DNA of 64,000 nt from Anaerolineaceae bacterium (GTDB taxonomy: Bacteria; Chloroflexota; Anaerolineae; Anaerolineales; Anaerolineaceae). The DNA lies in contig JAXGXE010000001.1 of NCBI GenBank assembly GCA_040772945.1, positions 1,012,862 to 1,076,861 on the forward strand. Reading direction: 5' to 3'. Both the position numbers and the translations under genes were made by a program. Of this stretch, positions 11,075-58,112 are shown one piece after another. Numbering within the stretch: the stretch's first letter is position 1; the number at the start of each line of letters is the position of its first letter. The notes beneath the pieces were generated by a model, which ran no database searches, was not told where the DNA came from, and worked only from the letters and a program-made list of their open reading frames with translations.

Positions 11075-11080
11075 TCTCGC

Positions 11081-20697: not shown

Positions 20698-20979
20698 GTT
20701 CTTAACCCGTTCATAATCCTTTCTACGGACATAAATTCCATAGCTTACTGATGGGGTACCTGAACCTTTATACATGGCTAAGTTGGAAGCAGCATAAGAC
20801 CGAGAATCCATTGCCATGCCTATGCTTCCCCGGGTTTGATAGGTTTTGATGCGGTAAGGGATTTTGTTTTCGATGAGAATGTTTTCCACCCGACGAACTT
20901 CAGCTGCATCTGAGTCCGTTAAAACCTTTTTTAGAAGAGGAATTAACATAAAAAATTCAATAATTCTATTTTGTAGCAT
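20686..20979 (-). CDS. Small alpha/beta protein of unknown function (DUF2007-like?), last gene of the TPR operon
   Basis: 97-aa ORF lying 21 nt after the 935-aa gene, with a GGAGA Shine-Dalgarno. The family assignment is a weak guess. Confidence 0.45.
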   Translation of the reverse strand: MLQNRIIEFFMLIPLLKKVLTDSDAAEVRRVENILIENKIPYRIKTYQTRGSIGMAMDSRSYAASNLAMYKGSGTPSVSYGIYVRRKDYERVKNLIS

Positions 20980-21000: not shown

Positions 21001-23808
21001 TTATTTAGAGGTACTAAGCTTGACCATCTTGCCTTTTTGGTCAAAGGTCATGCGGGCAAACTGATCAAAATTCTTTGAACGATATTCATAGCTCTTTTTT
21101 ACAGTAACGACGTATCGTTGACTCTGTTGAATGGCTTCAAGTGTGTTCTTTCGGTCAAGTTCTGGATCAGCATTGGACTGCATCACGCCCAACAGGGGAC
21201 TAATCGCCATTTTTCCTTCTTCCATGCCTGGCACATAGGATTTGATGACTTTACGAACTTTATCCAAAATTTCATTCGGCATCTCATCCTGCTTGATAAT
21301 CATATCCGGTCTGGAATCGCTGATGGTCTTAATAACGGGGGAGGTCGCTACTCGCACGATGGGTTTGGTCATTTCTCTGATGTCTTTGCTGCTGGCAAGC
21401 GGATCACCGTAAATGACGAAAGATAGAATGGTTTTTTGGTCTTCGCCGTCAAGGAATCCCTGGTCAGCAGTCATTTTGCTGGCGAGAGCCAATTTCGCGC
21501 GCATTAGCGCATAACCAACGGCAACTTCGTTTTTTACATGGGTCCAGAAATGATGTGCCAGGAGATCTGCCGCGACGAGCGTTTTACCTGGTGCGCCGTA
21601 AGCGATGACTGTTGATCCAACAAAAGCACGCGTACCACGCGACAAAAAATTGAGAGCAACAGATTCATTTACTTTTTTGTCGAGAACCCAGGCTCCAAAA
21701 CAAGCCTCACTCAGAACGATTGAGGGCGCGCCGGTTGTTTCGGTAAATGTCTTGGTATTTAATGCTACTGGATATTCAATATCGGTTCCCTCGCGACTTA
21801 GATCACGTTGACCGTACCATTCGTTGCTTTCTTTTAAGCCATGCAAGTTGAAGTAGCCAAATTTGCCATTAGCTTTGCGGTTTTCAAGGATATTTTTGTT
21901 TGTCGTGGGTGGTGAAGTAAGCAGACGTTTCGCATCGTCTATGACGCCAAAAACGCCAGAAGAAGCGGTTTTCCATACCTCAGCACTCACTCCAAGATGG
22001 TTGGCGTTCTGCGGTTTAGTGCTGAACATGCGTAACCAGTTGAACAGCGCACCAAAGAGCGTTGCGAGGAAGTTACTGACAAAACTCTTTTTAGTCTTCT
22101 TTTTGATGCTATATTCATTGTTTAAGAAACGTAATTGTTCGAGAAGATAACCCGCGTCTTTTCCTTTTTCATCGGGTAGACGACCCACGGGCCATTGTTG
22201 GACGAAATAGTTATCGTCAAGCGTCGCGTAGGGGTTATCAGACGGCACATTTGGATCGCTGTCGTCTGTTGGATTGGGTAACAAGTGAAACGGAACAATA
22301 TCATTTCCGCCAACGATGAGTAAAGCGCCAATCATTTCTCCCTTAACGGAGAGTTTGCTGTCAAGGTCGATGAGCGCTCTTTTTAAGGTCTCAGCATTTG
22401 ATGTTTCTAATAAAGTCGTGCCTAATTCATTGGCATTTTCGGGATCGTCAGGAATAAAAACGGTGCTATTCCAACCTGGTAGTTCAAGTATCTTTGCGGA
22501 AAGATTACGGATAGAGTCAATGATGACCTGGCTGGTATTCTCACCGTACTTTTTGTTGAGATTATTACGACTGGTCATGAACACATAGCTGGGGAAGCGC
22601 GTATCAGCGTTGGATAGCTCGGGACGGTTAATTTTACGGGTAACCTGATCGAAATCGGACTGAATTTCATCTAAAGCCGCAACAGTTTGGCGGGTTTCCT
22701 GATTGAAAATACTTTCATCAAAATTTTGAGTTTTAAAATTTCCATCTACTGGAAGTGTTGCAATATCTTCCTTAAAAAATGATGCGGTGGGAATTTCAGA
22801 ATAATCTGCTGCGATATTCGGATCTTCCTGAAGAATATCAAAGAGTTTGCCTGGCCGCAGCGGTACAGTCGCTTGCTCTGATAACAGAGCTTTAATTGCC
22901 TCTTCGGCGCTCATGTCTTTTGTTGAGACAGCTTGGGTTGGCGCGTCAAATAATACTTGAGCAGATGTTGTTGAGTGAGCTGTAGCTGATTGAGCGCCTG
23001 AACTTCCGGAAGCGAGGATGTTCCAGCCTAATTCCGCGGCGACATTCGCTGGCACTGGTAAGTCGAGATAGACCTTAAGGTCTTCGGGCCACAAGGGTTG
23101 ATAAACATGGTTTGGGCCAAGCAAGCGATGAACAACCTGCCCACTGACATCATGCGCGGCAGCCCAGTGTAACTTTTCTACACCAGCGGAATCGTTATCA
23201 TTGCTCATATCTGCCAGGGCAGAAAATATTTTGATCTGTAGACAATCTTTCCAGCGACTGCTGTAGAGCTCAGAAAGAGTTTTTAATAAAGTCGCGTTGC
23301 TCATCTGCAAGACAACATGCAAATGCATAATCGCGGGAAGAGGCAAATTAGGATTGTGAGCGAGACTTTCCAATACAGATTTTTCAGCTGCAGAATATTC
23401 CCCTGCTTCAAACTCAGCGCGAGCCTGATTAAGCGCGTGCAGCCAGGGTGACAGAGATTTATCCGGCACGATGTTGCGGGTTAAATAGCTTAGAGCGGTT
23501 TCAATGTCGATATTGTTATGATTTTTTAGACGGGCACAGAGGGCCAGCGCTTCGGTGAATTCCGGGTCAAAACGAATGAGTCGTTCAAGGGTCGCGATGG
23601 CCATGTCATTATCACCCAGTTCAACCAATGCGGTTGCGTAAATTAAGTTGACCAAAAGGTCGCCTGGGTAGCTTGCCATCCATATAAGACAAGCTTGACG
23701 GACGAACTGGAATTCTCGGTTGCTCATCGCGGTTTGAACAATCGTCAGAAATTTACTGCGTCTGACAATCATAATTTCTTCAGCGTTGTTGATTGGGTAT
23801 GGTCTCAT
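21001..23808 (-). CDS. TPR-repeat protein with a C-terminal clan-CD (gingipain C25/caspase-fold-like) cysteine peptidase domain
   Basis: 935 aa. The N-terminus has TPR-like helices. The C-terminus has LLIVGGNDIVPF, SDNPYATLDD and VGRLP, then FGYFNLHG and, about 45 aa later, SIVLSEACFG (a His-Gly / Ala-Cys dyad layout). No signal peptide. ATGA overlap with the upstream gene. Confidence 0.65.
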   Translation of the reverse strand: MRPYPINNAEEIMIVRRSKFLTIVQTAMSNREFQFVRQACLIWMASYPGDLLVNLIYATALVELGDNDMAIATLERLIRFDPEFTEALALCARLKNHNNIDIETALSYLTRNIVPDKSLSPWLHALNQARAEFEAGEYSAAEKSVLESLAHNPNLPLPAIMHLHVVLQMSNATLLKTLSELYSSRWKDCLQIKIFSALADMSNDNDSAGVEKLHWAAAHDVSGQVVHRLLGPNHVYQPLWPEDLKVYLDLPVPANVAAELGWNILASGSSGAQSATAHSTTSAQVLFDAPTQAVSTKDMSAEEAIKALLSEQATVPLRPGKLFDILQEDPNIAADYSEIPTASFFKEDIATLPVDGNFKTQNFDESIFNQETRQTVAALDEIQSDFDQVTRKINRPELSNADTRFPSYVFMTSRNNLNKKYGENTSQVIIDSIRNLSAKILELPGWNSTVFIPDDPENANELGTTLLETSNAETLKRALIDLDSKLSVKGEMIGALLIVGGNDIVPFHLLPNPTDDSDPNVPSDNPYATLDDNYFVQQWPVGRLPDEKGKDAGYLLEQLRFLNNEYSIKKKTKKSFVSNFLATLFGALFNWLRMFSTKPQNANHLGVSAEVWKTASSGVFGVIDDAKRLLTSPPTTNKNILENRKANGKFGYFNLHGLKESNEWYGQRDLSREGTDIEYPVALNTKTFTETTGAPSIVLSEACFGAWVLDKKVNESVALNFLSRGTRAFVGSTVIAYGAPGKTLVAADLLAHHFWTHVKNEVAVGYALMRAKLALASKMTADQGFLDGEDQKTILSFVIYGDPLASSKDIREMTKPIVRVATSPVIKTISDSRPDMIIKQDEMPNEILDKVRKVIKSYVPGMEEGKMAISPLLGVMQSNADPELDRKNTLEAIQQSQRYVVTVKKSYEYRSKNFDQFARMTFDQKGKMVKLSTSK

Positions 23809-26800
23809 TTTCGTTTTGTTGCCTCTTGGAGATTATTGAGAAGGTTTTGTGCGACAATAGCTGCCAGTTGACGGCGGATGCTCTGGTCAGTGGGGGCAAG
23901 TTGGGCGGCTTTTTGGAGCATCAGCTCAGCACTGCGGAAATCGCGACTGGCTTTATAAGCGTTGGCGGCGTGCACATAAGCGCGGGGGTCTTTGCTGACT
24001 TGTTCAATCGCCTTATTGTAAGTTTTGAGGGCTTGTTCGTTCAAGCGTTGGTCTTCATAACTCTGACCAAGTTCAAGATAAGCCTCGATAAGGCTTGGGT
24101 TTTCTTCAATGGCTTGCTTGAGATAAACCTGAGCCGTGTCATGTTGATTGTATAAGCGGTACAGCGCGCCCAATGCGAGCAAAGTTTCCGCATTTTTGTT
24201 TTCTAATTTCAGGCTTTGGAGCAATGTCTTTTCCGCGTTTTTACTTTGATCAAGTAATAGTTGGTATTGTGCCAGTAAATTAAGCACATTGGGGTAGTCA
24301 GGATGTTCATGTGCGAGGCTGGTTGCCATACGCAAACCAGTTGCGGGGTTATCGCGGGCTTCAATGCGGATACGATAGATCTCAAAAGCGATAGGATCTT
24401 TCGCGATGAGCATTGCGTCCTGAGCCAATTTTTTGGCTTCATCAAAAGACTGGCGGACAATCAGCGATTCTATTTTGACTTTTAAGGCGCGTTCACACTT
24501 GAGTGAGCTATCAATGACTTGGTCGGCGTAAACTATCGCTTGGTCGTATTCCTGGATAATGAAATGTAATTCAGCCAACGATTCAAGCGCGTTCAGATTG
24601 CCGGGCTCGAGGATTAAGAGCTCTTTTTGGTATTCGATCGATTTTTTGTATTCACCTAATTGGCGATTAAGATCCGCGAGGGCTTCCAAAACAGGGATGG
24701 CGTTTGGCTTGAGGGTGTTGGCTTTCTCGTAATCCTTTATTGCGGCATGGTAATCTTTTTCAAGCCATTTGATTTCACCCAATGAATGCCAGTATTGGCT
24801 GTTGTTGGGTTCCAGCTCAATCGCCATGCTAATGCTGTCTTTGGCATCACTAAGTTTGTTTTGTTGCTTCTGGAACATTGCCAAAAGCGCCAGCCATTCG
24901 GGTTCGTCTGGCCAAATGCTTAAGGCGCGTTGAATGGCTTCTTCAGCTTCTTGGGGTTGGTCAGCTTGCGCGATTGCCAGGGCAACATGATACAAAGCTT
25001 GTCGGCTTTGAATAATAGGAATCTTGTTTAAGATTTCCACAGCATTCGCAGGCTGTCTATCGAGGAGTTTAATAGCGTATTGGAACTGCAAATCATCATC
25101 GTGCGGATGGGCAGCCATTATTTGTGAAATGATGCCTGGGTTCTTGGTCACGGCCACTGCCTGTATAGCAAGTTTTCTTGAATAAAGCAATGTGTCCAGA
25201 TTAGTTTCTTCTGGTAAATGGCCGGTGAACTGAGCTTTGCCTATGATTTCTACAGCTACAACACTATCAGCTGGAATAATACCTTTTGCCATTGAAAGTC
25301 GCTCGTCAAAAAGAGCTTCATCGGATTTGGTATCATTCAGGTTTTTAGCTAAACGCTTGCTCACTTTTAATGTCTTTGAAAGAGCTTTCATCCTCGCTTT
25401 ATCTGCGAGGTATTCAGCGAGTGTGAGGTTTAGGCGTGGGTTTGAATCACAAATACGCAAGCACTGCCTAAATATTTGATCGGCGAAGTCCCAGTCCAGC
25501 ATTCTCCAGGCGACGATAGCGACTGCACATTTCTCCCAAAGACTGCTAAATTCTTGAAGTTTAGCCAGATTAGGATGCTCTTCTTCAGGTTGAGAAGCTT
25601 GACGATCTTTCATAATCTGCAGAAATGCCATAGCTTGGTGAGACTGTTGCTGATTTTCTGTTGTAAGCACGCCCACAGCCATGCTGATGAGGTTTTGCTC
25701 ATCTTTGCTTAAGAAGTTTTCAAAAAGAAGACCAGCTTTTGTCATATCAACATTGAGCAAGGCATCCAGTGTCAGTATTCTAATAATATCGATGTCTGTT
25801 GAACTGAGTTGTGCTTTGTTGTTCAAAGACTCTAAAGTGTTATTGAGCTCGTATTGCTCTGCAGTAGATAAGGCTAATTCAGTTTTAATGAGTTGCGCAT
25901 TAGAATTGCCGGGGTCTGATTTTAGTGAAAGATGGGCATGTTTGATTGCCTCAGTATAGTTGCCCATAGCGCGATGTAAAAGTGCGGCTCTGAGCTGAAG
26001 GTTGCTAAGGTCAAATGGCAGATAACCATGGCTTAAATTAGGTGAGAAACTACTTTGCAAGAAGTCAGTATTTCCCTCTTCCGCACGTTTGAGAAGAGGC
26101 TCTAAGGACTGCAGGGCGGGCTGGTATTGTTTATCCTCAGCATATGCGTCCGCCCGCAAGATACTAAAACCTGGTTGGTGAGCGTGTTTTTGTTTTACTT
26201 TATTCAAAAAATCGAGGGCAATTGACGACTGCTGATTGTCTAACAGAGCATAAGCTATTTCGCAGCACTGGAAGTAATTCAGATTTTCATTCTCAGAAAT
26301 GGCGCGTTCCAGAATTTCAGTCGCGAGTTTGGACTCATTCATCTGCATATAGAGACTGGCTACCTTCAGATAATCTGACGTGGAGATATCCGAAGTTTCC
26401 AACATTTTGCTCAAAGTTATTTTTGACTCATCGATGGCATTGTTTTCCAAATAAATTTGTGCCAAAGAGAGATGTAATATCTGTTCTTCTGAACGCAAAT
26501 AGACAGCATCTTTTAAAGCCTGGATGGCGTCATGCGGTCTTTGATTCATTTGCATAAATTTTGCGTACCAGAGAACGTTTTCAGGGTCAGTTGATGCCAG
26601 TTGAAGAGCGGTTTGCGCGCTTGAGATGGCTTCATCAATCAGCCCGGATTTGAGATACGCATGGGAGAGCGCGTGGCGTGATGTGAGATCGTTGGCGTTG
26701 AAAGAGACCGCTTCTTGTAAAGATGCCATGGCGATATCTTCAAAGCCCAAATCAAAGGCGACTAAACCAATTTGTCGCTGTAAATGTTGATAGAAGCGTG

Positions 26801-29132
26801 GCGCTTTGGCTTCAGGTTGATCGAGGAGGTAGATGTAATCCTCATAAGCTTCTTCAAGCTGTCCAAGCCTGGCTTTTACATCGCTTTCTAAAAGCCTCAT
26901 TTCAAAATTAGCGTCGAAGGTTGCTGTGCGGTCTTGTAAACTTGGGAGCAATTCCTGCAGATCTGACATAGTTTGTGTCGATTTTTCGTCATCTTGTTCT
27001 GATAATGTCAGCAGGTTGCGGATGTAAGCCACCAGGGACTCATTGCTTTTTAGACTTTGCCAGGCGAATTTATAAATAACGTTAGCGCGTTGGTTTTCTT
27101 TTCCAGCAGCGAGTGTTTCTGCCAGTACCAAAGCCAATTGAGGATTGCTGTTAAATTCGCTTTCAAAGGGCACAATGGTATCCCAGGCTTCTTCGGTTTT
27201 GCCTTGATTAAGCAAAGCCTTGGTCAAAGCAATACTCGCATCCATACTGTCAGGTTGAATGCCCAAGGCTTGTTTGAGAGTATGCGCCGCTTCGGAGGAT
27301 TGACCATGGTCGAGGTAAAGCTTACCCAGAGCGTAAAGGATTTGAGCGTCATCGGGTAAAACGACCTGTGCTTTTTGCAATGTGCTTAAGGCTTGATCGG
27401 TTTCGCCAAGATTATTCCAAATGCGTGCCAGGGCAAGCCAGCTATCCGTTTTTTCTGGAGCCAAGGCTGACGCTTGTTTGAGGAGGCCGCGAGCTTCATC
27501 AGTGCGCTCACTTTGGATGAGTGCTTCACTGAGAATGACCATTGCTTCACCATCCAGCGCGTCCTGAGATAAATAGTCTTGCGCGATTGGGATAGCGATA
27601 TCGGGTTGACCGGCATCAATAGCAAGTTTGGCATAATAGAGCGAATCTTCACGGGAAACTGATGTATCGCTCTCAATTACCTGGCTGAAGGTTTCAAGCG
27701 CTTTTTGTGGTTCATGCGCTTTGATATAAAGTTGTGTAAGCTCTTGTTTATACTCACGGTTTTTGGGTTCCAGTATTGAAAGCATACTGAAGTTCTGAAT
27801 CGCTTCAGGTAAATAAGCCAATCGTTGCTGGATTTGCCCCGCGAGTTCAATAGCCGCGATATCGTTTGGGTTTTCGAATAAAGCTTTGTTGATTAATTCG
27901 TTGGCAACTGCAAAGTTTTTGACTTTGGCAGAAAATTCAGCAGCAAGTTGTTTGTCAGTTTTACTCAAAAACCGGGATTTCTGGTTCGTCGTGAAAATAT
28001 TGAGTTGCTCAGGGTCAAATTCATGCTCAAAATTGGGTTGAATTGCAGCAAACTGAGGATGGCGAACGGAGAAAAGCCATCTCGTCGTGTTATCAGAGAG
28101 CGTGTTGAGCAAATAGAGTGCTTGATGCACATCGCCTTTGGCAATGAGAAATTCAGCATATTCGCTGATGTAAGTTTCGTTGTCAGGATCCAGGCTGAGA
28201 ATTTCCTCCCAAGTCTTGAGGGCTTCATCAGGCTGGATTTTTTCGAGGTCTTTCGCGGTTTTTTGAAGAAAAGCAACGCGTTCTTTTTTGTGTTCTTCAC
28301 GGGATTTATCAAAAGAACTGATCGCATCCTGGTTCAGACCGGCAAATTGCTCCAATTGTCCACGGGTTCTCAAATCTTCTATAGAAAGCTTTTGCTCTGC
28401 ATCAAAAACTTTTTCATGCTCTTCAGATAAAAATGTCTGGGCGAGCCCTTGCACAAGCTCAATATTTTCCGGATCATCCAAGGCGCGGAGTAAGGCGAGT
28501 TGAAAGTCTTTTGAAGAGTCTAATGAGAGCGTGCTAAAGAATTGGAAACGTTCTTCATCGTCCATTGAAGTTGTGAAAACTACGTGCTTTATTAGTTTGG
28601 CAACCTTGTCCAGCTTTTGAAGAGGAACTTCGTCGATGAGGGTAATTAATGCTTGGTCGTAGTCATTAGCCAAAGCCGGGAGGACCACAAAGGCTGTCTT
28701 CCAAAGCTCAAGTCCTTTGTTCTCTCCGTCAATAAAGTCTAATAATCCATTCCAGCTTTGATGCTCAACGCGGTAATCGCGCAGCGTCAATGCCAACAGC
28801 GCGACATCGCTAAGAGAACTGGGCTCAAGCCCAGTTACTCGGATAGCCTTAAGCAGTTCTTCACTCTTATGCTTGAGTTCATCAGGAACAGTTGTAAATA
28901 ATTCCTGGTAGTCTTCGAAAAACAGACCAGGTCTTAAACTGAATAGAGAAAAGGTGCTGACCTGCCATTTGTCTTGGTCATTACCAGCAAATGCAATCCA
29001 ATCCTCTGGATGCTCAAGGGTGGCGAGCGCCTTCCAAACCAAATGATCCTGTCGAAAACTGCTAATCAACTGGCGCTGGGTTTTTTGATTGAAATGCGTT
29101 TTGAGATGTGATAAAAACCAGTCAATTCCCAT
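23805..29132 (-). CDS. Giant tetratricopeptide-repeat protein (~1775 aa)
   Basis: After a non-repetitive head of about 270 aa, the protein consists of TPR-like A/L/Y/E-rich helical pairs along its whole length. No signal peptide. The track start is TTG at 29144; the ATG at 29132 follows a GGAGGA Shine-Dalgarno. Confidence 0.85.
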   Translation of the reverse strand: MGIDWFLSHLKTHFNQKTQRQLISSFRQDHLVWKALATLEHPEDWIAFAGNDQDKWQVSTFSLFSLRPGLFFEDYQELFTTVPDELKHKSEELLKAIRVTGLEPSSLSDVALLALTLRDYRVEHQSWNGLLDFIDGENKGLELWKTAFVVLPALANDYDQALITLIDEVPLQKLDKVAKLIKHVVFTTSMDDEERFQFFSTLSLDSSKDFQLALLRALDDPENIELVQGLAQTFLSEEHEKVFDAEQKLSIEDLRTRGQLEQFAGLNQDAISSFDKSREEHKKERVAFLQKTAKDLEKIQPDEALKTWEEILSLDPDNETYISEYAEFLIAKGDVHQALYLLNTLSDNTTRWLFSVRHPQFAAIQPNFEHEFDPEQLNIFTTNQKSRFLSKTDKQLAAEFSAKVKNFAVANELINKALFENPNDIAAIELAGQIQQRLAYLPEAIQNFSMLSILEPKNREYKQELTQLYIKAHEPQKALETFSQVIESDTSVSREDSLYYAKLAIDAGQPDIAIPIAQDYLSQDALDGEAMVILSEALIQSERTDEARGLLKQASALAPEKTDSWLALARIWNNLGETDQALSTLQKAQVVLPDDAQILYALGKLYLDHGQSSEAAHTLKQALGIQPDSMDASIALTKALLNQGKTEEAWDTIVPFESEFNSNPQLALVLAETLAAGKENQRANVIYKFAWQSLKSNESLVAYIRNLLTLSEQDDEKSTQTMSDLQELLPSLQDRTATFDANFEMRLLESDVKARLGQLEEAYEDYIYLLDQPEAKAPRFYQHLQRQIGLVAFDLGFEDIAMASLQEAVSFNANDLTSRHALSHAYLKSGLIDEAISSAQTALQLASTDPENVLWYAKFMQMNQRPHDAIQALKDAVYLRSEEQILHLSLAQIYLENNAIDESKITLSKMLETSDISTSDYLKVASLYMQMNESKLATEILERAISENENLNYFQCCEIAYALLDNQQSSIALDFLNKVKQKHAHQPGFSILRADAYAEDKQYQPALQSLEPLLKRAEEGNTDFLQSSFSPNLSHGYLPFDLSNLQLRAALLHRAMGNYTEAIKHAHLSLKSDPGNSNAQLIKTELALSTAEQYELNNTLESLNNKAQLSSTDIDIIRILTLDALLNVDMTKAGLLFENFLSKDEQNLISMAVGVLTTENQQQSHQAMAFLQIMKDRQASQPEEEHPNLAKLQEFSSLWEKCAVAIVAWRMLDWDFADQIFRQCLRICDSNPRLNLTLAEYLADKARMKALSKTLKVSKRLAKNLNDTKSDEALFDERLSMAKGIIPADSVVAVEIIGKAQFTGHLPEETNLDTLLYSRKLAIQAVAVTKNPGIISQIMAAHPHDDDLQFQYAIKLLDRQPANAVEILNKIPIIQSRQALYHVALAIAQADQPQEAEEAIQRALSIWPDEPEWLALLAMFQKQQNKLSDAKDSISMAIELEPNNSQYWHSLGEIKWLEKDYHAAIKDYEKANTLKPNAIPVLEALADLNRQLGEYKKSIEYQKELLILEPGNLNALESLAELHFIIQEYDQAIVYADQVIDSSLKCERALKVKIESLIVRQSFDEAKKLAQDAMLIAKDPIAFEIYRIRIEARDNPATGLRMATSLAHEHPDYPNVLNLLAQYQLLLDQSKNAEKTLLQSLKLENKNAETLLALGALYRLYNQHDTAQVYLKQAIEENPSLIEAYLELGQSYEDQRLNEQALKTYNKAIEQVSKDPRAYVHAANAYKASRDFRSAELMLQKAAQLAPTDQSIRRQLAAIVAQNLLNNLQEATKRK

Positions 29133-29147
29133 TATGTCCTCCAACGC

Positions 29148-29480
29148 TTACGCGGCACTGAACAAAACAGGTTTCAACAGAAAGTAAGCGACTGCAAGTA
29201 AAACCAAACCAAGAAAAACAAAGAAAATGCCGATACCTGTATTGGATTGGGTCAGATCATTCAATGAACTTAAAAGCATTGACGCGTTACCAACCAGACC
29301 CGATACGCCATCGACGAGACCCTTTTGGGCTAACTTCGCTGTTGATTCCGCGATAGTACGAATGTTTTTATTCATTGCCTGGCGCGCGAGAATGATAATG
29401 CTGATTACAACGCAAATAATGCCCAGCAAAAAAATGATACCAGCAATGGTAATAACGATTTGGACATTGTTTTCTAACAT
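29148..29480 (-). CDS. Small two-helix membrane protein, first gene behind the sigma-54 promoter
   Basis: 110 aa with hydrophobic helices at both ends. A GAGGAG Shine-Dalgarno precedes the ATG. Confidence 0.6.
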   Translation of the reverse strand: MLENNVQIVITIAGIIFLLGIICVVISIIILARQAMNKNIRTIAESTAKLAQKGLVDGVSGLVGNASMLLSSLNDLTQSNTGIGIFFVFLGLVLLAVAYFLLKPVLFSAA

Positions 29481-29514
29481 AGTAACTCCTCTATAGTTCC
29501 TTCAAGTCCTATGT

Positions 29515-29530
29515 TGCAACTACTATGCCA
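29515..29530 (-). promoter_or_regulatory. Sigma-54 (-24/-12) promoter
   Basis: The minus strand reads TGGCATAGTAGTTGCA, which is TGGCA-N6-TTGCA with exact GG-N10-GC spacing. It lies in the 58-nt gap between the stop of the enhancer-binding-protein gene (29539) and the next ATG (29480). Confidence 0.75.
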
Positions 29531-29538
29531 AACAGGGT

Positions 29539-30726
29539 CTATGATGAGCTTTTCCGCTTATAGTTTACAATCTCCAAAGGCAGGTGATTGAGCTCGATAA
29601 TGGGGTCATCACAGAATAAAACTGCCCGCTCGATGGTGTTGCTAAGCTCACGGATATTTCCGGGCCAGTCGTAATTAACAAGTGCTTCCATCGCTCTGGG
29701 ACTGATATCAATGATGTTTGAACCCTGGCGCATATTGAAGCGGCGAACAAAGTAGCCAACCAGTTCAGGAATGTCATCTTTGCGTTTCACGAGTGTCGGA
29801 AGATCCAGGTCAACGACTTTGAGACGGTAGTAGAGGTCTTCACGGAATTCATGTTTTTCAATCATTCTGCGAAGATCACGGTTTGACGCGGCAATGATTT
29901 GCACGTCCACCTTAATCAGGTTTGTGCCTCCTACACGGCGGAACGAGCGTTCTTCAAGCGCGCGCAGGAATTTGGCTTGCAGATCAATTGGCATAGACGA
30001 AATTTCATCCAGGAACAAAATGCCACCATCAGCGACTTCCATTAAGCCTATTCTGCGTTGGGTCGCGCCGGTGAATGCTCCCGATTCATGACCAAACAGC
30101 TCTGATTCAAACATGGTGGGCTGTATTGCCGGGCAGTTAATATCAATGAAAGGTTTGTTTGCTCTTGGTCCGCTTTGGTGGATGAACCGTGCCAAAACTT
30201 CTTTGCCTGTCCCAGTCGGCCCAGTAATAAGCGCTGACACGCCCATTTCAGAAGCGCGACGGGCTAATTCGACAACATGAGCCATTTCTGGTGATGTGCC
30301 AATAATGAATTGTACATTCTTGCCTTGTGACGCGCGCCAATGATTGAGTTCGCGGCGCATACTGATCATGTCGTTGGCGCGTTTAACGGCGGCTTCTAAC
30401 TTGATGAGATCAAGAGGTTTCTCGATAAAGTCTTGCGCGCCGGCTTTCATCGCGTCAACAGCCATGCTTACTTCACCATGCGCGGTGATGATAATCACCT
30501 GTGGGCGCATCGGTAAGGTGGCGACATCTTCCAAAAGATGGGGCCCATAGCCGTCTGGCAGCTGGACATCCAAAATGATGACATCCGCCTTGCCTTCAGC
30601 AATCACTTTACGGGCATCGGCTAAGGTACCTGCTTCAATAACTTCGTAGCCTTTCGTGCGCAAATAATTACTTATTACCATTCGCGCGGTTTCTTCATCG
30701 TCAACGACTAAAATGCTATTTGTCAT
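29539..30726 (-). CDS. Sigma-54-dependent response regulator (REC plus AAA+ activator) lacking a C-terminal HTH DNA-binding domain
   Basis: 395 aa. REC domain (VVDDEE, IILDVQLPDGYG), Walker A GPTGTGKE, GAFTGA loop (ESGAFTGA), Walker B ILFLDEI. The protein ends about 35 aa after PGNIRELSN. Confidence 0.85.
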   Translation of the reverse strand: MTNSILVVDDEETARMVISNYLRTKGYEVIEAGTLADARKVIAEGKADVIILDVQLPDGYGPHLLEDVATLPMRPQVIIITAHGEVSMAVDAMKAGAQDFIEKPLDLIKLEAAVKRANDMISMRRELNHWRASQGKNVQFIIGTSPEMAHVVELARRASEMGVSALITGPTGTGKEVLARFIHQSGPRANKPFIDINCPAIQPTMFESELFGHESGAFTGATQRRIGLMEVADGGILFLDEISSMPIDLQAKFLRALEERSFRRVGGTNLIKVDVQIIAASNRDLRRMIEKHEFREDLYYRLKVVDLDLPTLVKRKDDIPELVGYFVRRFNMRQGSNIIDISPRAMEALVNYDWPGNIRELSNTIERAVLFCDDPIIELNHLPLEIVNYKRKSSS

Positions 30727-32689
30727 TTTTCTCCTCTAATGTCGCCATGGGTAGCAAAACACGGAACATTGTGCCACCCGGGTAGCTTTCAACAAAAATA
30801 TTGCCTTTATGCGCGGTCACAATCCGCTTGGTAATCGCTAAGCCTAATCCTGTACCTGTCGATTTGGTCGTTTGAAAAGGCTCAAAAATATGTTTTATAA
30901 GGTCATCGGGAATGCCAGTCCCAGAATCGGCAACGCATACTTCGTACTGTGGGGGCTGGCTGTCTTCAGCCGGTTTAATACTGATGCTTAACGTACCGCC
31001 ATCAGAATCCATTGCCTGGATGCCGTTACTAATGAGGTTCACAAAGACCTGTTCAATAGCGCGACCATCAGCAAGGACAATCGCGTTTGGCGGTTCTGAT
31101 TCAAAAAGATAGGAAATATTCAGGCGGGTCATTCGAGGACCCCAGCGCTCAAGGATGTTTTCAAGCAGGGATGTGAGATTCAAGGGCAATGGCTGATATT
31201 CAATGGGTTTGGCAAAGGTGAGCGTCGAGTCGGTAAGGTGGGTTAATCGTTGGCAATCCTGCTGCAAACGCATCACCAGGTTGTAATTTGGGTCTTCAGG
31301 TGCCATGGTCATGCCCATAAATTGCAGCCCGGTTGAGATGCTGTTGATGGGGTTTTTAACTTCATGAGCAAAAACAGCCGATACTTCGCCCAAAAACGCT
31401 CGCTGTTCAAGTTGTCTGCTGTGTTGCAAAAGTTGTTCAGTCTGGCTTAAATCACGTAGCAAAATGATGATGCTTTTAACCTGATCATCAATGCTAACAG
31501 GGACACAGGTCAACTGGGCAGGGAAGGCGTTTCCGTGCCGGTCATTGAGCAAGAGATTCGTGCCGGCAATCGTGCTGATGCCTTGTTGTGCCGATTTATA
31601 AAGCTTGGCGAGGCTTTCATTGCCAATGAGCACCATGGTGATGTCCTGCAGGTAGACTTCATTAGCGGCATAACCCAGGATATTTTCCGCAGCGAAATTC
31701 ATCTCCGCAATTCGCAAGTCCGGCGTCAGCACAATCAACCCTTCACTCATGTTTTCAGTTATGCCTCGTTCAATTTGCACGATGTGACGCATGGTTTGAA
31801 GACGTTTGCTGGCGTTTTCGAGTGCCATGAGCCTGGCATAGGCTGTTTTGGTATGGTTCGCCAGAACCGATAAAAAGCGCATAGTTTCAGTACTGGGTAT
31901 AGGCGTGAGTCCTGTGGCAAAGAGGATAGAAAAACACACTTTATCATCCCTGACTGGTAACAAGACAGCGTAGTTGAAGTCCTTTGAAAGCGTGAATTCG
32001 TGCAAGGGATGTTCTGGTGCCTGGTCTGACTGCCACAAAAAATGATAAGCAGGAATTTTGGCGGTGTCTAAGCCTGCTTTTTTAGGCAGTTGTGAGCAGT
32101 TGAAATGTGAGGGCAAATCCTGCTTTATGAAGGCATTCTTATTATCTGATTGCGGTAAGTAAAGCCCAAGAATGGGCGCGTTGAGCACTTTTTTTGCAAT
32201 CTCGGAGCATGTAAGCCATAAACCTTTGGAAGAGTTTTGCTCATTCAAGTTGTTCAGCAACGAGAAAGGATCCATCATATCTATCTGGCTTGACATGATG
32301 GTGTTTTCAGAACTCTGAGGGTCAAAATCGGGTGGATAGAACGCCAGGACAACCAGGCTGTTTGTCACATTGAGCGAAAACACCCGCATTGCTGATTGCA
32401 CAAGGTCTCCATCTGCGAGTCTCAGCCGGACTGGTCGCGTGTCATCCCCAGTGACGTTTGTGTCAGTTTCTTCTGGGAGGAGATCTATGAGATGCATCGT
32501 TGGCAATTCTTCATCTGAAAAATGGCATAAGTCAAAAAACTTGTTGTTTGCCATAAGGATATAGTCGAGATCGCGTCTATAAACAATCGCCGCGGTCGGG
32601 ATAAGATTTAAGATTCGAGAATGCCGCAAAAAATCCAGCTCAGTTGAATCGACACGGTTCGCGTCGGGAAGTGGCAAACGGGCTTGCAC
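30716..32689 (-). CDS. Cytoplasmic PAS/GAF-type sensor histidine kinase
   Basis: 657 aa. H-box FAHEVKNPINSI, ATPase boxes NLISNGIQAM, DSGTGIP and GTGLGLAI. No transmembrane segment. The GTG start lies 4 nt after the rpoN stop. Confidence 0.85.
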   Translation of the reverse strand: MQARLPLPDANRVDSTELDFLRHSRILNLIPTAAIVYRRDLDYILMANNKFFDLCHFSDEELPTMHLIDLLPEETDTNVTGDDTRPVRLRLADGDLVQSAMRVFSLNVTNSLVVLAFYPPDFDPQSSENTIMSSQIDMMDPFSLLNNLNEQNSSKGLWLTCSEIAKKVLNAPILGLYLPQSDNKNAFIKQDLPSHFNCSQLPKKAGLDTAKIPAYHFLWQSDQAPEHPLHEFTLSKDFNYAVLLPVRDDKVCFSILFATGLTPIPSTETMRFLSVLANHTKTAYARLMALENASKRLQTMRHIVQIERGITENMSEGLIVLTPDLRIAEMNFAAENILGYAANEVYLQDITMVLIGNESLAKLYKSAQQGISTIAGTNLLLNDRHGNAFPAQLTCVPVSIDDQVKSIIILLRDLSQTEQLLQHSRQLEQRAFLGEVSAVFAHEVKNPINSISTGLQFMGMTMAPEDPNYNLVMRLQQDCQRLTHLTDSTLTFAKPIEYQPLPLNLTSLLENILERWGPRMTRLNISYLFESEPPNAIVLADGRAIEQVFVNLISNGIQAMDSDGGTLSISIKPAEDSQPPQYEVCVADSGTGIPDDLIKHIFEPFQTTKSTGTGLGLAITKRIVTAHKGNIFVESYPGGTMFRVLLPMATLEEKNDK

Positions 32690-32692
32690 GAT

Positions 32693-34105
32693 TTATGACC
32701 TCGGTTGACTGTGTTTTTGACGTAAATGGGCTGGCAAAATGCCTTCCATTGAGCGGTATTTCGCGACAGTACGACGGGCAATGCTTATTCCGCGTTCCGC
32801 TAAAATGTCCTGGATTTCTGAATCGCTGTAGGGGGTGTCTTCACCGTCAATAATGGATTTAATTTCAGCGCGAGTGGCTAAGCTGCGGTCAAAAAAGACG
32901 GACATCGGTACAATGCGCTTGTTGGGTAACTGCACTGTTTTAGCGGATACCGCACGAGAGATGGTTGATTCATGCACATCCAGTTCTTGTGCCAGTTGCG
33001 CCCGGGTGAGTGCTTTCATGGCCTTATCCCCAGAGATGATGTAATCCTTTTGGTGAATGAGCAATCTTTCCAACAGTAATCGCAATGCGTTTGAGCGTTG
33101 TTGGATACATTTAATTAACAAAGAGGCTTTTTCAATGTCGCTACGCCATTCATCGGCTTTGTTTTCGTCCATTTCTTTCGTGGAGGATTTGAAAAGCGGA
33201 TTGACGCGCAATGTGCCACGGATTGGCAGGATAATTTCAACGACCAAAGGGTTTTTAGGGTTATCGTTGAGGTAATAAATAAGTACATCTGGCTGATGAA
33301 AAACATCTGGTGCGACAGGGCTGGGGTTACGCACGTCTCCCCAATGAGCTCGTGCTGGGAAAGGATTAAGGTTCTCAGTAATGAAACTTGAGATCGTCCG
33401 AATTTGCTGGCTTGTGGTGCCAAGTTGTTTGGCTATCTCAGAGAAGTTTTGGTGACTAAGCTTAGGTAAAAAGTCCCGGATGACATCGCGAGTATGTTCC
33501 GGCACTTTGATTGTTTCAGCCAGGGCGTCAATTTGCGCCAACATCGCCTCTTGTGGGTTGGCAGAACAAACGCCAATGGGGTCACATCGCTTAAGCCGTT
33601 CTATAATTTCACTCACTTCAGAAGGTAAACGATGATGGTAGCGGGCAACTTCCATGGCAGTGGTGGTGAGGAAACCATCTTCATCGAGGTGGTTGAGGAT
33701 ATAAGCGGTTATCAAGCGATCTTCAACGGGTAAATCAGCAGCGACCTGGCGCAAGACATAGGTAGCAAGGTCAACAGATTCGGAAGCATAATGCTCTTCG
33801 GGCACTTGTTCAGTGCTCGCGCCAGAACCTGTATAGAAATCCTCGCGGGGTGAAATGAAGATGATGGGGTCGTCTGAATCATAGCTGGCAGGCTGACTAC
33901 AGATAGGGCAAGGACCCGTGGGGGGTAACAAACGCTTACACATCGGACAACGACGCTCTTCAATCAGTTCCAAAGCGGGATTGGAGCCCAGCTCAGATTC
34001 GATTCTTTCACGCAACTCAGTAGCTGTGAGGCCGAGCAGGGTCATTGTTTGTGCCAGATGGGCTGAAGTTGTGGTTGTGATCTGTTGATAAGGCAGCTGT
34101 AACAT
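32693..34105 (-). CDS. rpoN: RNA polymerase sigma-54 factor with a CxxC..CxxC insertion
   Basis: 470 aa. RpoN box ARRTVAKYR, HTH ..HESTISRAVS.., region I LAQTMTLLGLTATELRERIESELGSNPALE. The insertion is CPMCKRLLPPTGPCPIC. Confidence 0.9.
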   Translation of the reverse strand: MLQLPYQQITTTTSAHLAQTMTLLGLTATELRERIESELGSNPALELIEERRCPMCKRLLPPTGPCPICSQPASYDSDDPIIFISPREDFYTGSGASTEQVPEEHYASESVDLATYVLRQVAADLPVEDRLITAYILNHLDEDGFLTTTAMEVARYHHRLPSEVSEIIERLKRCDPIGVCSANPQEAMLAQIDALAETIKVPEHTRDVIRDFLPKLSHQNFSEIAKQLGTTSQQIRTISSFITENLNPFPARAHWGDVRNPSPVAPDVFHQPDVLIYYLNDNPKNPLVVEIILPIRGTLRVNPLFKSSTKEMDENKADEWRSDIEKASLLIKCIQQRSNALRLLLERLLIHQKDYIISGDKAMKALTRAQLAQELDVHESTISRAVSAKTVQLPNKRIVPMSVFFDRSLATRAEIKSIIDGEDTPYSDSEIQDILAERGISIARRTVAKYRSMEGILPAHLRQKHSQPRS

Positions 34106-34137: not shown

Positions 34138-35517
34138 GTGCAAGAATTATACCAGAGAAAATCAGGGATGCGCTATAATAGTCAAAACAAAAAAGGACTT
34201 ATATTGGATAGTTTATTTGAAACTGAAGAACAACTCGAAAAAGCCGTGATGGTGGGCGTATGGTTGGGCAAGAACAACGAATCGACCCTAAACCTTGAAG
34301 GCTCCCTTGAAGAATTGGCATTTCTGGCAGAAACAGCTGGTATTGAAGTGGTAGGGGAAATCACCCAAAATTTAATCCATCCTAACCCTAAAACTTACAT
34401 TGGTTCTGGAAAGGTTGAAGAACTTAAATTGCTTGTTGAGGAACTGGGCGCGGATATGATTTTGTTTGATGATGAACTTTCGCCAAGACATCAACGCGAG
34501 CTTGAAGAAGTTTTTGGGAATAAAACGAAGGTCATTGATCGAACCGCTTTGATTTTGGATATTTTCGCGTTGCATGCGGATACAGCTGAAGGAAAATTGC
34601 AAGTAGAGCTGGCTCAGCTGCATTACCGCTTGCCCCGTTTGACCCGCGCCTGGACCCATCTCGCCAGACAAGCTGGCGGTGGCGCTGGGCGTACCGGTAG
34701 TGTGGGTGGCGTGGGTTTGCGTGGGCCTGGTGAAACCCAGCTTGAAACCGACCGACGAGAAATCCAAAAGCGAATCACCAAGCTTGAAGATGAGCTTGAA
34801 AAGGTTCGCGAACGCCGTGCCCGCCACCGCAGCCAACGTAAGAAAAGCAATGTACCCATTGTGGCATTGGTTGGTTACACTAACGCGGGCAAATCGACTT
34901 TGCTGAATGCGATAACGAACTCGGAAATTTATGTCGCAGATCAACTCTTCGCCACATTGGATCCTACAATCCGACAACTTCAGCTGCCGGGTGGAACTGA
35001 GATCTTAGTATCTGATACAGTGGGGTTTATTCAAAAGCTGCCTACACAATTGGTAGCAGCCTTCCGCGCGACGCTGGAAGAAATAAAAGAGGCGGATTTG
35101 CTTTTGCACATCGTGGATGTTTCGCATGAGCATCACCAGGAGCAGAGCTATTCCGTTTTGGAAACGTTGAGGGAAATCGAGGCTGGGGATATCCCCATTT
35201 TGACCGTTTACAACAAAATTGATCTTTTGGACGAAGAAACGCTTAGCAATCTGGAAACGTCTTCTGAAGAAATGTCCTACTTCATCTCTGCCCGAACCGG
35301 AGAAGGGGTGGAAGCCCTGCAGGAAGCTATAGCAGATGAGCTTTTTTCCGAGCAGAGTTTGCTGAAGGTATTGTTGCCTTATTCAGAGGGCAGATTGGTA
35401 TCCATCTTTCACGAACGGGGCAACGTGATCAATGTGGAGCATTTGGAAGAGGGCATCTTGATTTATGGTCGCCTTCCCAGGGAAACCAGACCCTATTTTA
35501 CGGATTACATGCAATAG
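34138..35517 (+). CDS. hflX: GTPase HflX
   Basis: 459 aa with the HflX N-domain and G-domain motif GYTNAGKSTLLN. The track start is GTG; an ATG alternative is at 34168. Confidence 0.9.
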   Translation: MQELYQRKSGMRYNSQNKKGLILDSLFETEEQLEKAVMVGVWLGKNNESTLNLEGSLEELAFLAETAGIEVVGEITQNLIHPNPKTYIGSGKVEELKLLVEELGADMILFDDELSPRHQRELEEVFGNKTKVIDRTALILDIFALHADTAEGKLQVELAQLHYRLPRLTRAWTHLARQAGGGAGRTGSVGGVGLRGPGETQLETDRREIQKRITKLEDELEKVRERRARHRSQRKKSNVPIVALVGYTNAGKSTLLNAITNSEIYVADQLFATLDPTIRQLQLPGGTEILVSDTVGFIQKLPTQLVAAFRATLEEIKEADLLLHIVDVSHEHHQEQSYSVLETLREIEAGDIPILTVYNKIDLLDEETLSNLETSSEEMSYFISARTGEGVEALQEAIADELFSEQSLLKVLLPYSEGRLVSIFHERGNVINVEHLEEGILIYGRLPRETRPYFTDYMQ

Positions 35518-37080: not shown

Positions 37081-37115
37081 TTTGGAAAGCTTGTGTTGTT
37101 AGTCAGCGATTATGA
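35967..37115 (+). CDS. IS481-family DDE transposase
   Basis: 382-aa ORF with an HTH (VSKTARIFKISRATVYKAI) and an rve core (VQIDLKY, WTAIDVHSR, FTVDRGEEF, NRPGHPEDNPHVERSHRT). The probable start is MKDITH at 35988. The ORF reads 35 nt past the IS end. Confidence 0.8.
   Translation: MILRCTLMKDITHLDYHALRRDSPKTARRAVLQVLKAHNGNVSKTARIFKISRATVYKAIEKDAEKNLDDSSRAPHTVHNKTDTELEARVLQIRKQTGYGPLRIKEELEELDQISLSEHTIRNILRRNRDEAKPRHQKTANKTKRHFVDWYSAKAFEVVQIDLKYIVDQKALSMEQIHHIYTKNLPLYQWTAIDVHSRFRLIGYSYEKSWTNGLAWIFWVLSWLRSHGVQSHIFFTVDRGEEFGGKSWFKIYELRKLLSDFGCTFIQNRPGHPEDNPHVERSHRTDDEEFYIPRLLSVASKKDFFFEAMNYLYYYNVVRRHSALERKSPYAHLSKTTRGIDDKIRFIPPIFLDHLAVQLGDWSGYHVLASHLWKACVVSQRL
37081..37096. repeat. 16-bp direct repeat TTTGGAAAGCTTGTGT (right flank)
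   Basis: Identical to 35860-35875. Confidence 0.85.
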
Positions 37116-56830: not shown

Positions 56831-56897
56831 ATTTTGATTGGCTGGTATAAAACATGCACCTATTTATATATAACGTTATATGCATATGAGGTACCAA

Positions 56898-58112
56898 ATG
56901 GAAAACTTCCTTTCTGAATTTAGAGAAAAATTGAAAGTGCCCCGTAATCTTGCCATCTTTACGGGAGTTATTGGCTTAATCCTGGGATTAATACTGGCAT
57001 GGGGTGTTTTTCCTGTCAAATGGAAAGATGCCAGCGCTGAACATCTTCGAGCCGATGAAAGGGTAGTTTATCTGCGCAACGCTATAAACGCTTACACCAT
57101 GACAGGCCGGGTTCAGGAAGCGCAACTGGCCTGGGCATCCCTTGGTTCAAACGCGGTCAAAACACTTGAAGATCTTAATCAGTCACCTGGTTTTCTGTAT
57201 ACTGAGCAAATCGAACGTTATGCCCAAGCTGTTGATACAAGCGCGCCTGCACCGATTGTTCTGCCCGAAGACAATAACGCTGTCGTGAAAGATGATGGAA
57301 CCATCATTGGTTTGCGTCCTGCTGATGAGACCGAAGAACCTGAGAAAAAGGAAAAGGGACTGCTTTGGTTGGGTATTATCTTATTAGTACTTCTATTGGT
57401 TGGCGCGGGATTGGTGTGGTGGTTCTTCTTCAAAGACAAAAATGTTGAATTACCCTTCAAACTCAAAAAACGCAACGAAGAAAAACCATCCCCGACCTTT
57501 GGTGGGTTAAGACCTGCAGCGACACCAATTAAGCGTGAACCCATTCAAAAACCAGTGAAGGAAGTGGATGAAACCGAAAAGCCTGAAGAAGAAGCCAAAC
57601 CAAGCTTGCCAAATTTAGCCAGTCTTTTCGGTCTAAGCGATAGACAAAAAAACTCTGGAGAAGCCGCAGAACCACTGCCAGCTGCCAAACCAGTTGCTCA
57701 GTTCATGACAACCTATATGCTTGGCGATGACATGTACGATGAATCCTTTACCTTTGACGCGCCCAACGGCGAGTTTCTGGGCGAGTGTGGTGTGAGCAGC
57801 TCGGATACCATCGGCGTAGGTGAGCCCAAAAAGGTTTCCGCATTTGATATTTGGCTTTTTGATAAAAACGACATTCAAACCGTGACGAAAGTGGTCATGA
57901 GCAAACACGCTTTCAATGATGCCGCAACCCGACAGCGTCTTGAAATCCGTGGCGAGCCAATCATGGCGGATGATGGCAAACAGTTTGTGCTTGAAACAGC
58001 TACTCTTCGCTTGGAAGCCAAATTGCTTAGCTTCCAATACGGCGATTTACCATTGCCAGATGACAGTTACTTCCAACGCGCGACGATGGAATTAGCCATA
58101 TACCGCAAGTAA
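56898..58112 (+). CDS. Two-TM membrane protein of unknown function with a Lys/Pro/Glu-rich linker
   Basis: About 404 aa from MENFL, which has a GAGG Shine-Dalgarno 7 nt upstream. Hydrophobic helices lie near residues 20-45 and 165-190. I recognise no family. Confidence 0.55.
   Translation: MENFLSEFREKLKVPRNLAIFTGVIGLILGLILAWGVFPVKWKDASAEHLRADERVVYLRNAINAYTMTGRVQEAQLAWASLGSNAVKTLEDLNQSPGFLYTEQIERYAQAVDTSAPAPIVLPEDNNAVVKDDGTIIGLRPADETEEPEKKEKGLLWLGIILLVLLLVGAGLVWWFFFKDKNVELPFKLKKRNEEKPSPTFGGLRPAATPIKREPIQKPVKEVDETEKPEEEAKPSLPNLASLFGLSDRQKNSGEAAEPLPAAKPVAQFMTTYMLGDDMYDESFTFDAPNGEFLGECGVSSSDTIGVGEPKKVSAFDIWLFDKNDIQTVTKVVMSKHAFNDAATRQRLEIRGEPIMADDGKQFVLETATLRLEAKLLSFQYGDLPLPDDSYFQRATMELAIYRK

Follow-up and report, generated by a model that had tools for sequence, protein, structure and literature searches.

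A compact sigma-54 gene block with two candidate −24/−12 promoters in an Anaerolineaceae genome

Can a sigma-54 factor, the sensor and activator that would control it, and the promoters that it would serve constitute one genetic unit, and does such a sigma factor serve mainly its own locus? This question is raised by a gene block in a 64-kb stretch of DNA, referred to below as the window, from an Anaerolineaceae bacterium (assembly GCA_040772945.1, contig JAXGXE010000001.1, positions 1,012,862 to 1,076,861). Here, rpoN, the gene of a soluble PAS-domain histidine kinase and the gene of a sigma-54 activator devoid of a helix-turn-helix (HTH) motif are packed on the minus strand, as a preliminary description of this DNA had said. 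The sigma factor, the sensor, the activator and two candidate target promoters, here named P1 (upstream of rpoN) and P2 (downstream of the activator gene), are all found within less than 5 kb. We read the locus as a compact, family-conserved sigma-54 module of Anaerolineae, which acts on P2 and is probably self-activating via P1; on the comparisons outlined below, we assign this reading a probability of about 0.68. All coordinates are window positions, and the loci of relatives, which were compared with flanks of about 20 kb per relative, are labelled L007-L024.

The gene block and promoter P2

The rpoN gene (34105..32693, minus strand) encodes a divergent sigma-54 of 470 aa. It is followed by the kinase gene (32689..30716, minus; GTG start), which encodes a protein of 657 aa composed of a PAS domain, a middle region without assignment, a second PAS domain, HisKA and HATPase_c, and by the activator gene (30726..29539, minus), which encodes a 395-aa receiver-AAA+ protein without a DNA-binding domain (DBD). 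The close spacing noted earlier was found in both places, i.e., 3 nt separate the rpoN stop from the kinase start, which begins at the fourth nucleotide, and the kinase and activator genes share 11 nt. The presence of HisKA and HATPase_c in the kinase (Pfam), of a receiver in the regulator, and the adjoining position of the two genes place the pair among two-component systems. Because hydropathy analysis identified no hydrophobic segment in the kinase, this protein is predicted to be cytoplasmic; its top NCBIfam match is AtoS, at a score below the cutoff of that model. In the receiver of the activator, the translation displays the residues DDE at 9-11, D53 in IILDVQLPDG, T81 and K103.

The motifs GPTGTGKE, ESGAFTGA and ILFLDEI, previously reported for the activator, were all confirmed, and Pfam assigns Response_reg (residues 5-115), Sigma54_activat (141-307; PF00158, E 1.6e-67) and AAA_lid_14 (314-393). 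With its Walker A and B motifs and its GAFTGA loop, the protein is an AAA+ member of the bacterial enhancer-binding proteins (also named bEBPs), but one in which the Fis-type HTH is missing. A search for HTH_8, which had been suggested as a check, yielded no match (Pfam, E up to 0.01), and the chain stops at the AAA+ lid; the preliminary description was right that it ends shortly after PGNIRELSN, although the distance is 32 aa rather than about 35. The NCBIfam profiles of AtoC, NtrC, NtrX and ZraR, which comprise 441-469 positions, find no match beyond about position 390, and an alignment to Aquifex NtrC1 covers residues 10-390 of 447 (PDB 4l4u, E 9e-92) and then stops. The profile positions of the HTH thus stay unmatched, and the alignments end where the linker to the HTH would begin. 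The shortness of the chain is not an artefact of truncation, because ten proteins at this position, that of the window included, end alike, 28-41 aa after GNxREL; by gene calls, the activators at the cassette position have lengths of 390-402 aa. The same ten proteins carry a GAFTGA or GSFTGA loop, except that of L022, where the loop reads GAFTDA.

On its domain composition, the activator is classed in the DBD-less subclass, i.e., type Ic in the scheme of Francke, to which CtcC and FlgR belong. Its scores against the AtoC (387 bits) and NtrC models are above that against the Campylobacter FlgR model (283 bits), all of them being below the equivalog cutoffs (NCBIfam), which suggests that the DBD was probably lost independently of FlgR and CtcC. 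Matches of the activator to RtcR-type models in PADLOC, which involve solely the AAA+ domain, were rejected.

The candidate promoter P2 (TGGCATAGTAGTTGCA, 29530-29515, minus) is located in the 58-nt gap behind the activator stop, where the minus strand reads TTGGCATAGTAGTTGCAA at 29531..29514. The exact GG-N10-GC spacing ascribed to it earlier is present; the element has the form TGGCAT-AGTAG-TTGCA, and 35 nt lead from its GC to the ATG at 29480 of a gene for a 110-aa protein, the first of three output genes. A Shine-Dalgarno sequence is found nearby, as had been described, but GAGGAG starts 22 nt past TTGCAA rather than about 24. With the −12 C at 29516, transcription is predicted to start near 29504. 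Both P2 and P1 agree with the −24/−12 consensus, reside on the coding strand at a short distance from the gene, and are conserved in orthologous spacers (alignments A3 and A2, respectively).

How much weight P2 can bear depends on how often such a motif occurs by chance. In the window, the loose consensus with one mismatch was found 18 times where 11.7 matches are expected, i.e., at chance level, and P2 alone is therefore weak evidence. In addition, no terminator was found between the activator gene and P2; neither terminator nor sigma-70 scans of the cassette rose above the shuffle expectation. These observations would suit a P2 that is a chance GG-N10-GC, with the downstream genes transcribed by read-through only. 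The comparison with relatives points the other way. In the P2 spacers of 11 genomes, the only invariant positions are GGCA-N6-TTGC, the GAGG of the Shine-Dalgarno sequence and the ATG, despite differences in the N5 spacer, in both flanks and in the length of the intergenic spacer. Furthermore, P2 is retained in L021, where there is no upstream cassette from which read-through could originate. A sharper pattern, TGGYAY-N5-TTGCA, which was formulated after the alignments had been seen, occurs twice in the 64 kb against an expectation of 0.19, and none of 100 shuffles reached two matches; the two are P1 and P2, both intergenic, on the coding strand and directly upstream of rpoN and of the 110-aa gene, respectively. 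We consider a chance origin of P2 very improbable, and on strong comparative evidence P2 is predicted to be a real, conserved −24/−12 promoter.

A position weight matrix (PWM) was built from 22 P1 and P2 sites. It gave the top score of the window to P2 (29.6) and a score of 27.0 to P1, but because the matrix was built from P1 and P2 these high values are circular, a further point that weakens the case. An exact match to the loose consensus at 61026 was rejected because it falls within a GHMP-kinase gene that runs in the opposite direction, as was a PWM match at 30197, which falls within the coding sequence of the activator and lacks the GC at −12.

The order rpoN, kinase, activator, P2, small gene, a gene for a tetratricopeptide-repeat (TPR) protein (not in every locus) and a gene for a C25-like protein is kept in L007-L010, L014-L017, L019 and L020, where the identity of sigma-54 declines from 87% to about 57%; the synteny of the cassette was found in at least 12 genomes, at sigma-54 identities down to 52%. 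This conservation bears out the proposal that sigma factor, sensor, activator and a sigma-54-type promoter are one cassette. That the cassette is self-contained holds in the sense that physical linkage is common, but not in the sense that it is obligatory. In L021, a ribosomal protein gene precedes the operon of small, TPR and C25-like genes, and the 10 kb upstream of the operon contain neither rpoN nor a gene for the kinase or the activator, but the operon nevertheless keeps CCGGCACGGACCTTGCAA, 37 nt before its ATG; in L018 (the complete Anaerolineales genome CP070639.1) the operon is found 9 kb from the activator gene and keeps GGGCATAATTCTTGCA. In Leptolinea (L011) there is neither a gap nor a P2, and the small gene continues the rpoN operon. 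Because this gap is missing, the whole unit in Leptolinea is predicted to be one operon behind P1.

Promoter P1 and the feedback question

The second candidate, P1 (TGGTATAATTCTTGCA, 34154-34139, minus), is a −24/−12 element directly upstream of rpoN that was not part of the preliminary description. It has the form TGGTAT-AATTC-TTGCA, with its GC 34 nt before the rpoN ATG, and from the −12 C at 34140 a start near 34128, 23 nt before the ATG, is predicted. The arrangement is found in all 12 cassette genomes, and in an alignment of nine of the spacers only GG.A......TTGCA and the TG of the start codon are invariant. P1 belongs to rpoN rather than to the divergent gene hflX, because in L014-L017, L019 and L020 other genes (an aminotransferase gene and more) separate hflX from rpoN. 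In the window, the longest open reading frame (ORF) of hflX starts with a GTG at 34138 (plus strand) and would overlap P1 (region 34138-34204); a TATAAT at 34174-34179 (plus) and the gene calls of relatives favor a start at the TTG at 34204 (437 aa), which leaves a divergent control region of 98 nt.

Which sigma factor uses P1 is less evident than for P2. In the clade of the window, the −24 half reads TGgTATAAT, i.e., a perfect extended −10 element with a CA at the expected start, such that TGGTATAAT-TC-TTGCA fits a pure sigma-70 promoter equally well. In the same place L014 has TACAAT, L015 has TATACT and L016 has TACACT, and in L014 and L015 a −35-like hexamer is found 17-18 nt upstream; altogether, the −24 part of P1 conforms to TAxxxT in nine of 12 genomes, which represent four of seven distinct lineages. 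Moreover, the window holds a promoter, that of the ileS leader (TTGACC-N17-TGGCATAATTCTCGC), that is certainly of the sigma-70 type, mimics the GG-N10-GC spacing by accident and differs from P1 at only 3 of 15 positions. All of this speaks for a P1 that is purely a sigma-70 extended −10 promoter, in which case there would be no sigma-54 autoregulation and P2 alone would depend on sigma-54.

Other features of P1 are difficult to reconcile with sigma-70 alone. All 12 genomes have TTGCA at the exact GG-N10-GC spacing, and the −24 half of L017, L019 and L020 reads TGGCAC or TGGCAT, unlike a −10 element; in these three loci the sigma-70 −10 is located elsewhere, and the conserved TGGCAC is left unexplained if sigma-70 is the only user. 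Nor is the sequence TGGTAT itself foreign to sigma-54, since it is the functional −24 element of the classic Klebsiella pneumoniae nifH promoter. In L016, L017, L019 and L020, a spacer of exactly 17 nt separates TTGCAA or TTGCAC from a downstream TATACT or TATAAT; in every lineage a sigma-70-type promoter thus overlaps P1, either on the −24 half or with the −12 half as its −35 element. Because only a sigma-54 reading explains both halves at a fixed spacing, we interpret P1 as a sigma-54 promoter with a basal sigma-70 promoter overlapping it. Use of P1 by sigma-54 in the window's own clade is, on these alignments, likely at odds of about two in three, and a P1 that is exclusively of the sigma-70 type appears rather unlikely.

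The module as we read it would operate as follows. The kinase would sense a cytoplasmic cue via its PAS domains and phosphorylate the receiver of the activator, which would then assemble as an AAA+ ring. By analogy to FlgR and CtcC, this HTH-less ring would encounter the promoter-bound RNA polymerase-sigma-54 from solution, contact it via the GAFTGA loops and open the complex. P1 would place all three regulatory proteins of the block in their own regulon, i.e., it would establish positive feedback. Because P1 always overlaps sigma-70-like hexamers, such a self-amplifying loop could be primed by basal transcription from these hexamers, and because no terminator separates the activator gene from P2, read-through from P1 would add to transcription from P2.

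The ileS leader region mentioned above (11043-11327, plus; sigma-70 promoter TTGACC-N17-TGGCATAAT) contains a T-box leader at 11082-11327 (plus), which matches RF00230 at 89.5 bits, just under the gathering score, and was missed by the default scan; at gathering thresholds, Rfam identified only a tRNA in the window. The PWM match at 11063-11086 was rejected as a sigma-54 site because it is the sigma-70 promoter of this leader.

The sigma factor and the reach of its regulon

The suggestion that the sigma factor may serve mainly this locus is taken up below, after the protein itself. Pfam identified the activator-interacting domain (residues 14-47), the core-binding domain (104-270) and the DNA-binding domain (321-463); region I is intact, the RpoN box ARRTVAKYR is present and invariant among homologues (alignment A4), and structures of E. 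coli sigma-54 can be aligned over its full length. Its TIGR02395 score of 232 bits is below the equivalog cutoff of 277, which makes it a divergent member of the RpoN family. The divergence includes the part where E. coli sigma-54 has the acidic region II: here, the window protein has RRCPMCKRLLPPTGPCPICSQP (pattern RRCPMCxRxLPxxGxCPICSQP), which includes a Cys4 motif, CPMC-N9-CPIC, formed by C53, C56, C66 and C69 (rpoN residues 53-69; 33949-33899, minus). Region II of sigma-54 is variable or absent, so its replacement is no bar to membership in the family.

The Cys4 motif is invariant in alignment A4 and was found in 120 of 120 close homologues, the nearest of which come from metagenome-assembled genomes that bear the name Anaerolineaceae or Chloroflexi. 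A search of 1.84 billion proteins gave 117 full-length sigma-54 sequences among its 150 best representatives, with identities of 28-48%; 105 of these have CxxC-N(4-30)-CxxC in this place, one of the carriers being a member of Ktedonobacterales. The motif may be a zinc ribbon; in the AlphaFold model the stretch has a predicted local distance difference test (pLDDT) score of about 50, which speaks neither for nor against such a structure. A replacement of region II by Cys4 is thus common to a large sigma-54 clade and constitutes a candidate structural feature in a well-studied family, and no description of a Cys4 motif in sigma-54 was found in the literature searched.

The cassette has a narrower distribution than this clade. 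In L022, where sigma-54 is 36% identical and has the Cys4 motif, rpoN, kinase and activator genes are kept (10001-15215), but neither the target operon nor a PWM match was found in that locus, and a gene with a DUF8091 domain stands in the place of the small, TPR and C25-like genes; together with the altered loop of its activator, the module of L022 may be decaying or rewired. In L023 and L024, which harbor distant sigma-54 proteins of the Cys4 type, rpoN is linked to neither a kinase nor an activator gene. It follows from these three loci that the cassette is not phylum-wide and is narrower than the Cys4 sigma-54 clade.

The unlinked rpoN genes of L023 and L024 would also be expected if rpoN were an ordinary, general-purpose gene, the adjacent kinase-activator pair one of several activating systems, and sigma-54 promoters numerous in the genome. 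A DBD-less activator does not preclude this situation, since CtcC is reported to serve about 64 genes, of which 33 have promoters (PMC7482065), and additional candidate sites were indeed found. The first, P3 (TGGTATAAAACATGCA, 56843..56858, plus), is located 22 kb from the cassette and 42 nt before the likely ATG at 56898 of a gene for a 404-aa membrane protein with two transmembrane segments (56898..58112, plus; the start at 56880 in the ORF list is probably six codons too early). The second, a look-alike TGGCACACTACATGCA at 17126-17141 (plus), has the GG-N10-GC spacing and a PWM score of 14.6, and is found in a 28-nt gap before the gene of a secreted BNR/sortilin-like protein, which probably starts at 17161 or 17165 after GAGGTG. 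The third belongs to L018, where extra genes (4653-9891) separate the activator gene from the target operon: TGGTACATTTCTTGCA, at L018:4653, has a PWM score of 22.6 and precedes by 49 nt the gene of a 449-aa protein, which is followed by an FtsZ-like gene. All three sites tell against a module confined to its own locus. The motif of P3 (CTGGTATAAAACATGCACCTAT, 56840-56863) scores 19.1, inside the shuffle range.

P3 deserves closer consideration. In six relatives TGGTA.AAA.C.TGCACCT is invariant while the flanks diverge, and the site, which has the GG-N10-GC spacing, is identical to P1 of Leptolinea at 21 of 22 positions. It belongs to the ambiguous class TGGTATAA (TGGTAYAA), which also reads as an extended −10 element, and it could thus be used by sigma-54, by sigma-70 as an extended −10 promoter, or by both. 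That it is a sigma-54 site has, by this comparison, slightly less than an even chance; if so, its gene may extend the regulon by a third member.

All the extra candidate sites are of the same ambiguous TGGTAYAA class, which lessens what they contribute to the picture of a general-purpose rpoN. Other data also disfavor that picture: rpoN, kinase and activator genes are translationally packed and this arrangement is kept across the family; no second GAFTGA protein was found in the 64 kb; and in the loci of 14 relatives (251 kb) the PWM at a score of at least 20 identified P1, P2 and, outside the cassette, only the site in L018. In addition, for Herpetosiphon, also of the Chloroflexi, a count of one sigma-54 and one true activator is on record (PMC3162934, supplement). 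On the 64-kb window and the loci of relatives, we therefore regard a general-purpose rpoN at this locus as doubtful, and a sigma factor that mainly serves the module described above as no more than plausible. Since the activator would act without an enhancer, the positions of −24/−12 sites alone would decide what belongs to the regulon, which would be centered on the cassette but not necessarily confined to it. The FtsZ-like neighbor in L018 hints at a link to cell division; no homologues of the extra L018 genes, the FtsZ-like gene included, were found in the window.

Output operon, precedents and other features of the window

The first output gene (29480..29148, minus) encodes the 110-aa protein, for which hydropathy indicates two transmembrane segments and no match was found in Pfam, NCBIfam or PADLOC. 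Its family comprises 127 clusters, and the members with a taxon name are all from Anaerolineae or Chloroflexi. Some homologues carry JGI names that are backed by no profile, similarity of transmembrane helices being their probable origin. The second gene (29144..23805, minus) encodes a cytoplasmic protein of 1,779 aa that consists entirely of TPRs (Pfam TPR families); gene callers place its start four codons later (1,775 aa), and its position is conserved, except that the gene is absent in L011 and L015. The third gene (23808..21001, minus) encodes a protein of 935 aa with N-terminal TPRs and a putative C-terminal clan-CD (C25/CHAT-like) cysteine-peptidase domain. Transmembrane segments were detected by hydropathy neither in the TPR protein nor in the 935-aa protein or the activator, the 935-aa protein has no signal peptide, and PADLOC returned no defense match for the output proteins.

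The 935-aa family consists of 154 proteins, of which those with a taxon name are likewise from Anaerolineae or Chloroflexi; across the two families, one member is labelled only "bacterium". The motifs NLHG and EAC.G are invariant in 26 sequences; they hold H656-G657 and A702-C703 of the window protein, and H656 and C703 resemble a clan-CD His/Cys dyad. Precomputed annotation assigns PF01364 (Peptidase_C25) to the protein and its homologues, whereas our own Pfam scan (E up to 1e-3) identified TPRs only. In the AlphaFold model the TPR domain has a pLDDT above 90 and the mean is 67; the best Foldseek matches outside plain TPR proteins are the TPR-CHAT protein Csx29 and SAVED-CHAT, both weak (E 1e-3, TM-score 0.19-0.27). 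The peptidase assignment thus rests on weak profile and fold matches, which counts against our reading of the output. The resemblance to Csx29 (Craspase) and SAVED-CHAT is one of architecture only, i.e., TPRs joined to a caspase-like domain, and differs in that the window offers no CRISPR or CBASS context and no PADLOC match. With this qualification, we infer that the outputs form a cytoplasmic protease module, scaffolded by TPRs and tethered to, or signaling via, the small membrane protein. A 97-aa ORF (20686-20979, minus) behind the 935-aa gene is called in near-identical contigs and absent from that place in more distant loci; its membership in the operon is uncertain.

A more far-reaching possibility, which we hold to be improbable, is that the locus forms a minimal self-priming bistable switch, in which the Cys4 sigma factor would be co-transcribed with its kinase and its enhancer-independent activator. 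At a composite sigma-70/sigma-54 promoter the idle sigma-54 polymerase would occlude basal transcription and the active one would amplify the whole module, and the main output, a TPR-scaffolded caspase-like protease, would drive, in a filamentous bacterium, a programme of differentiation or cell fate. Via its Cys4 motif, probably zinc-binding, the sigma factor might itself respond to redox state or metals, a kind of control that is undescribed for sigma-54.

Every element of the module favored here has a precedent. DBD-less activators on record are CtcC, FlgR and FleT, and sigma-54 systems with a single activator are found in Chlamydia, Borrelia and L. plantarum (PMC3162934). That rpoN may belong to its own regulon is described for Rhodobacter capsulatus (PMC6925177), and predicted in several classes (PMC12316311). 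The closest likeness is that to CtcB-CtcC of Chlamydia trachomatis, where a kinase and a DBD-less receiver-AAA+ protein, the sole activator, operate enhancer-free, with AtoC as the best match (PMC7482065, PMC3162934). In Chlamydia, however, the rpoN transcript is approximately constant while ctcB and ctcC rise (PMC7482065), a sigma-54 promoter on rpoN is not reported, and the regulon of CtcC (the 64 genes noted above) covers membrane and type III secretion functions; in contrast, the cassette of the window has rpoN packed with the pair, a −24/−12 element of its own upstream of it, and the Cys4 motif. FlgS-FlgR of Helicobacter pylori and Campylobacter also combine a soluble kinase with a DBD-less receiver-AAA+ activator (PMC3162934). 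They differ in that they control flagellar genes. The FlgS and FlgR genes are not known to be linked to rpoN.

Positive feedback resembling that proposed for P1 is found in the nifU2-rpoN superoperon of R. capsulatus, where a weak constitutive promoter is combined with an RpoN/NifA-dependent one, such that a specialised sigma-54 feeds back on itself (PMC6925177, citing Cullen et al. 1994). There, however, the promoters do not overlap, NifA has a DBD and upstream sites and is encoded elsewhere, and the outputs serve nitrogen fixation. The receiver and AAA+ parts are closest in sequence to Aquifex aeolicus NtrC1 and to the activator of E. coli AtoS-AtoC, which, unlike the activator of the window, have a C-terminal Fis-type HTH and bind enhancers. 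In Cereibacter sphaeroides, RpoN3-AprX pairs one sigma-54 with one activator for a small, specific output, but RpoN3 is one of four rpoN paralogues and AprX has a DBD; a gene block or self-activation is not described there (PMC11999139).

The combination has not been described before; what is new is the packing of three regulators in one unit with sigma-54 elements at its head and tail, in an unstudied lineage, with a Cys4 sigma factor and a lineage-specific output. To our knowledge, sigma-54 has been studied almost exclusively in Proteobacteria, Firmicutes, Chlamydia and spirochaetes, and no sigma-54 studies in Chloroflexota were found in the literature searched. If confirmed, the module could serve as a minimal system, provided by nature, in which to study enhancer-independent activation and sigma-factor feedback, and as a compact candidate for an orthogonal expression module; it would also open access to the output operon, which is specific to Anaerolineae and encodes the membrane protein, the giant TPR protein and the caspase-like protease.

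Mobile elements occupy other parts of the window. A nest of insertion sequences (5612-10560) adjoins a tRNA gene (10686-10757) and contains two 100% identical genes for a 427-aa HTH/rve_3 transposase (5676-6959 and 9276-10559), with two identical genes for a 334-aa rve transposase between them (7049-8053 and 8141-9145). Near the cassette, a gene for an IS481-like transposase (rve_3; 35967-37115, plus) is inserted beside the L32 gene, and this transposase is the only protein among the 36 window ORFs scanned with Pfam that matches HTH_8.

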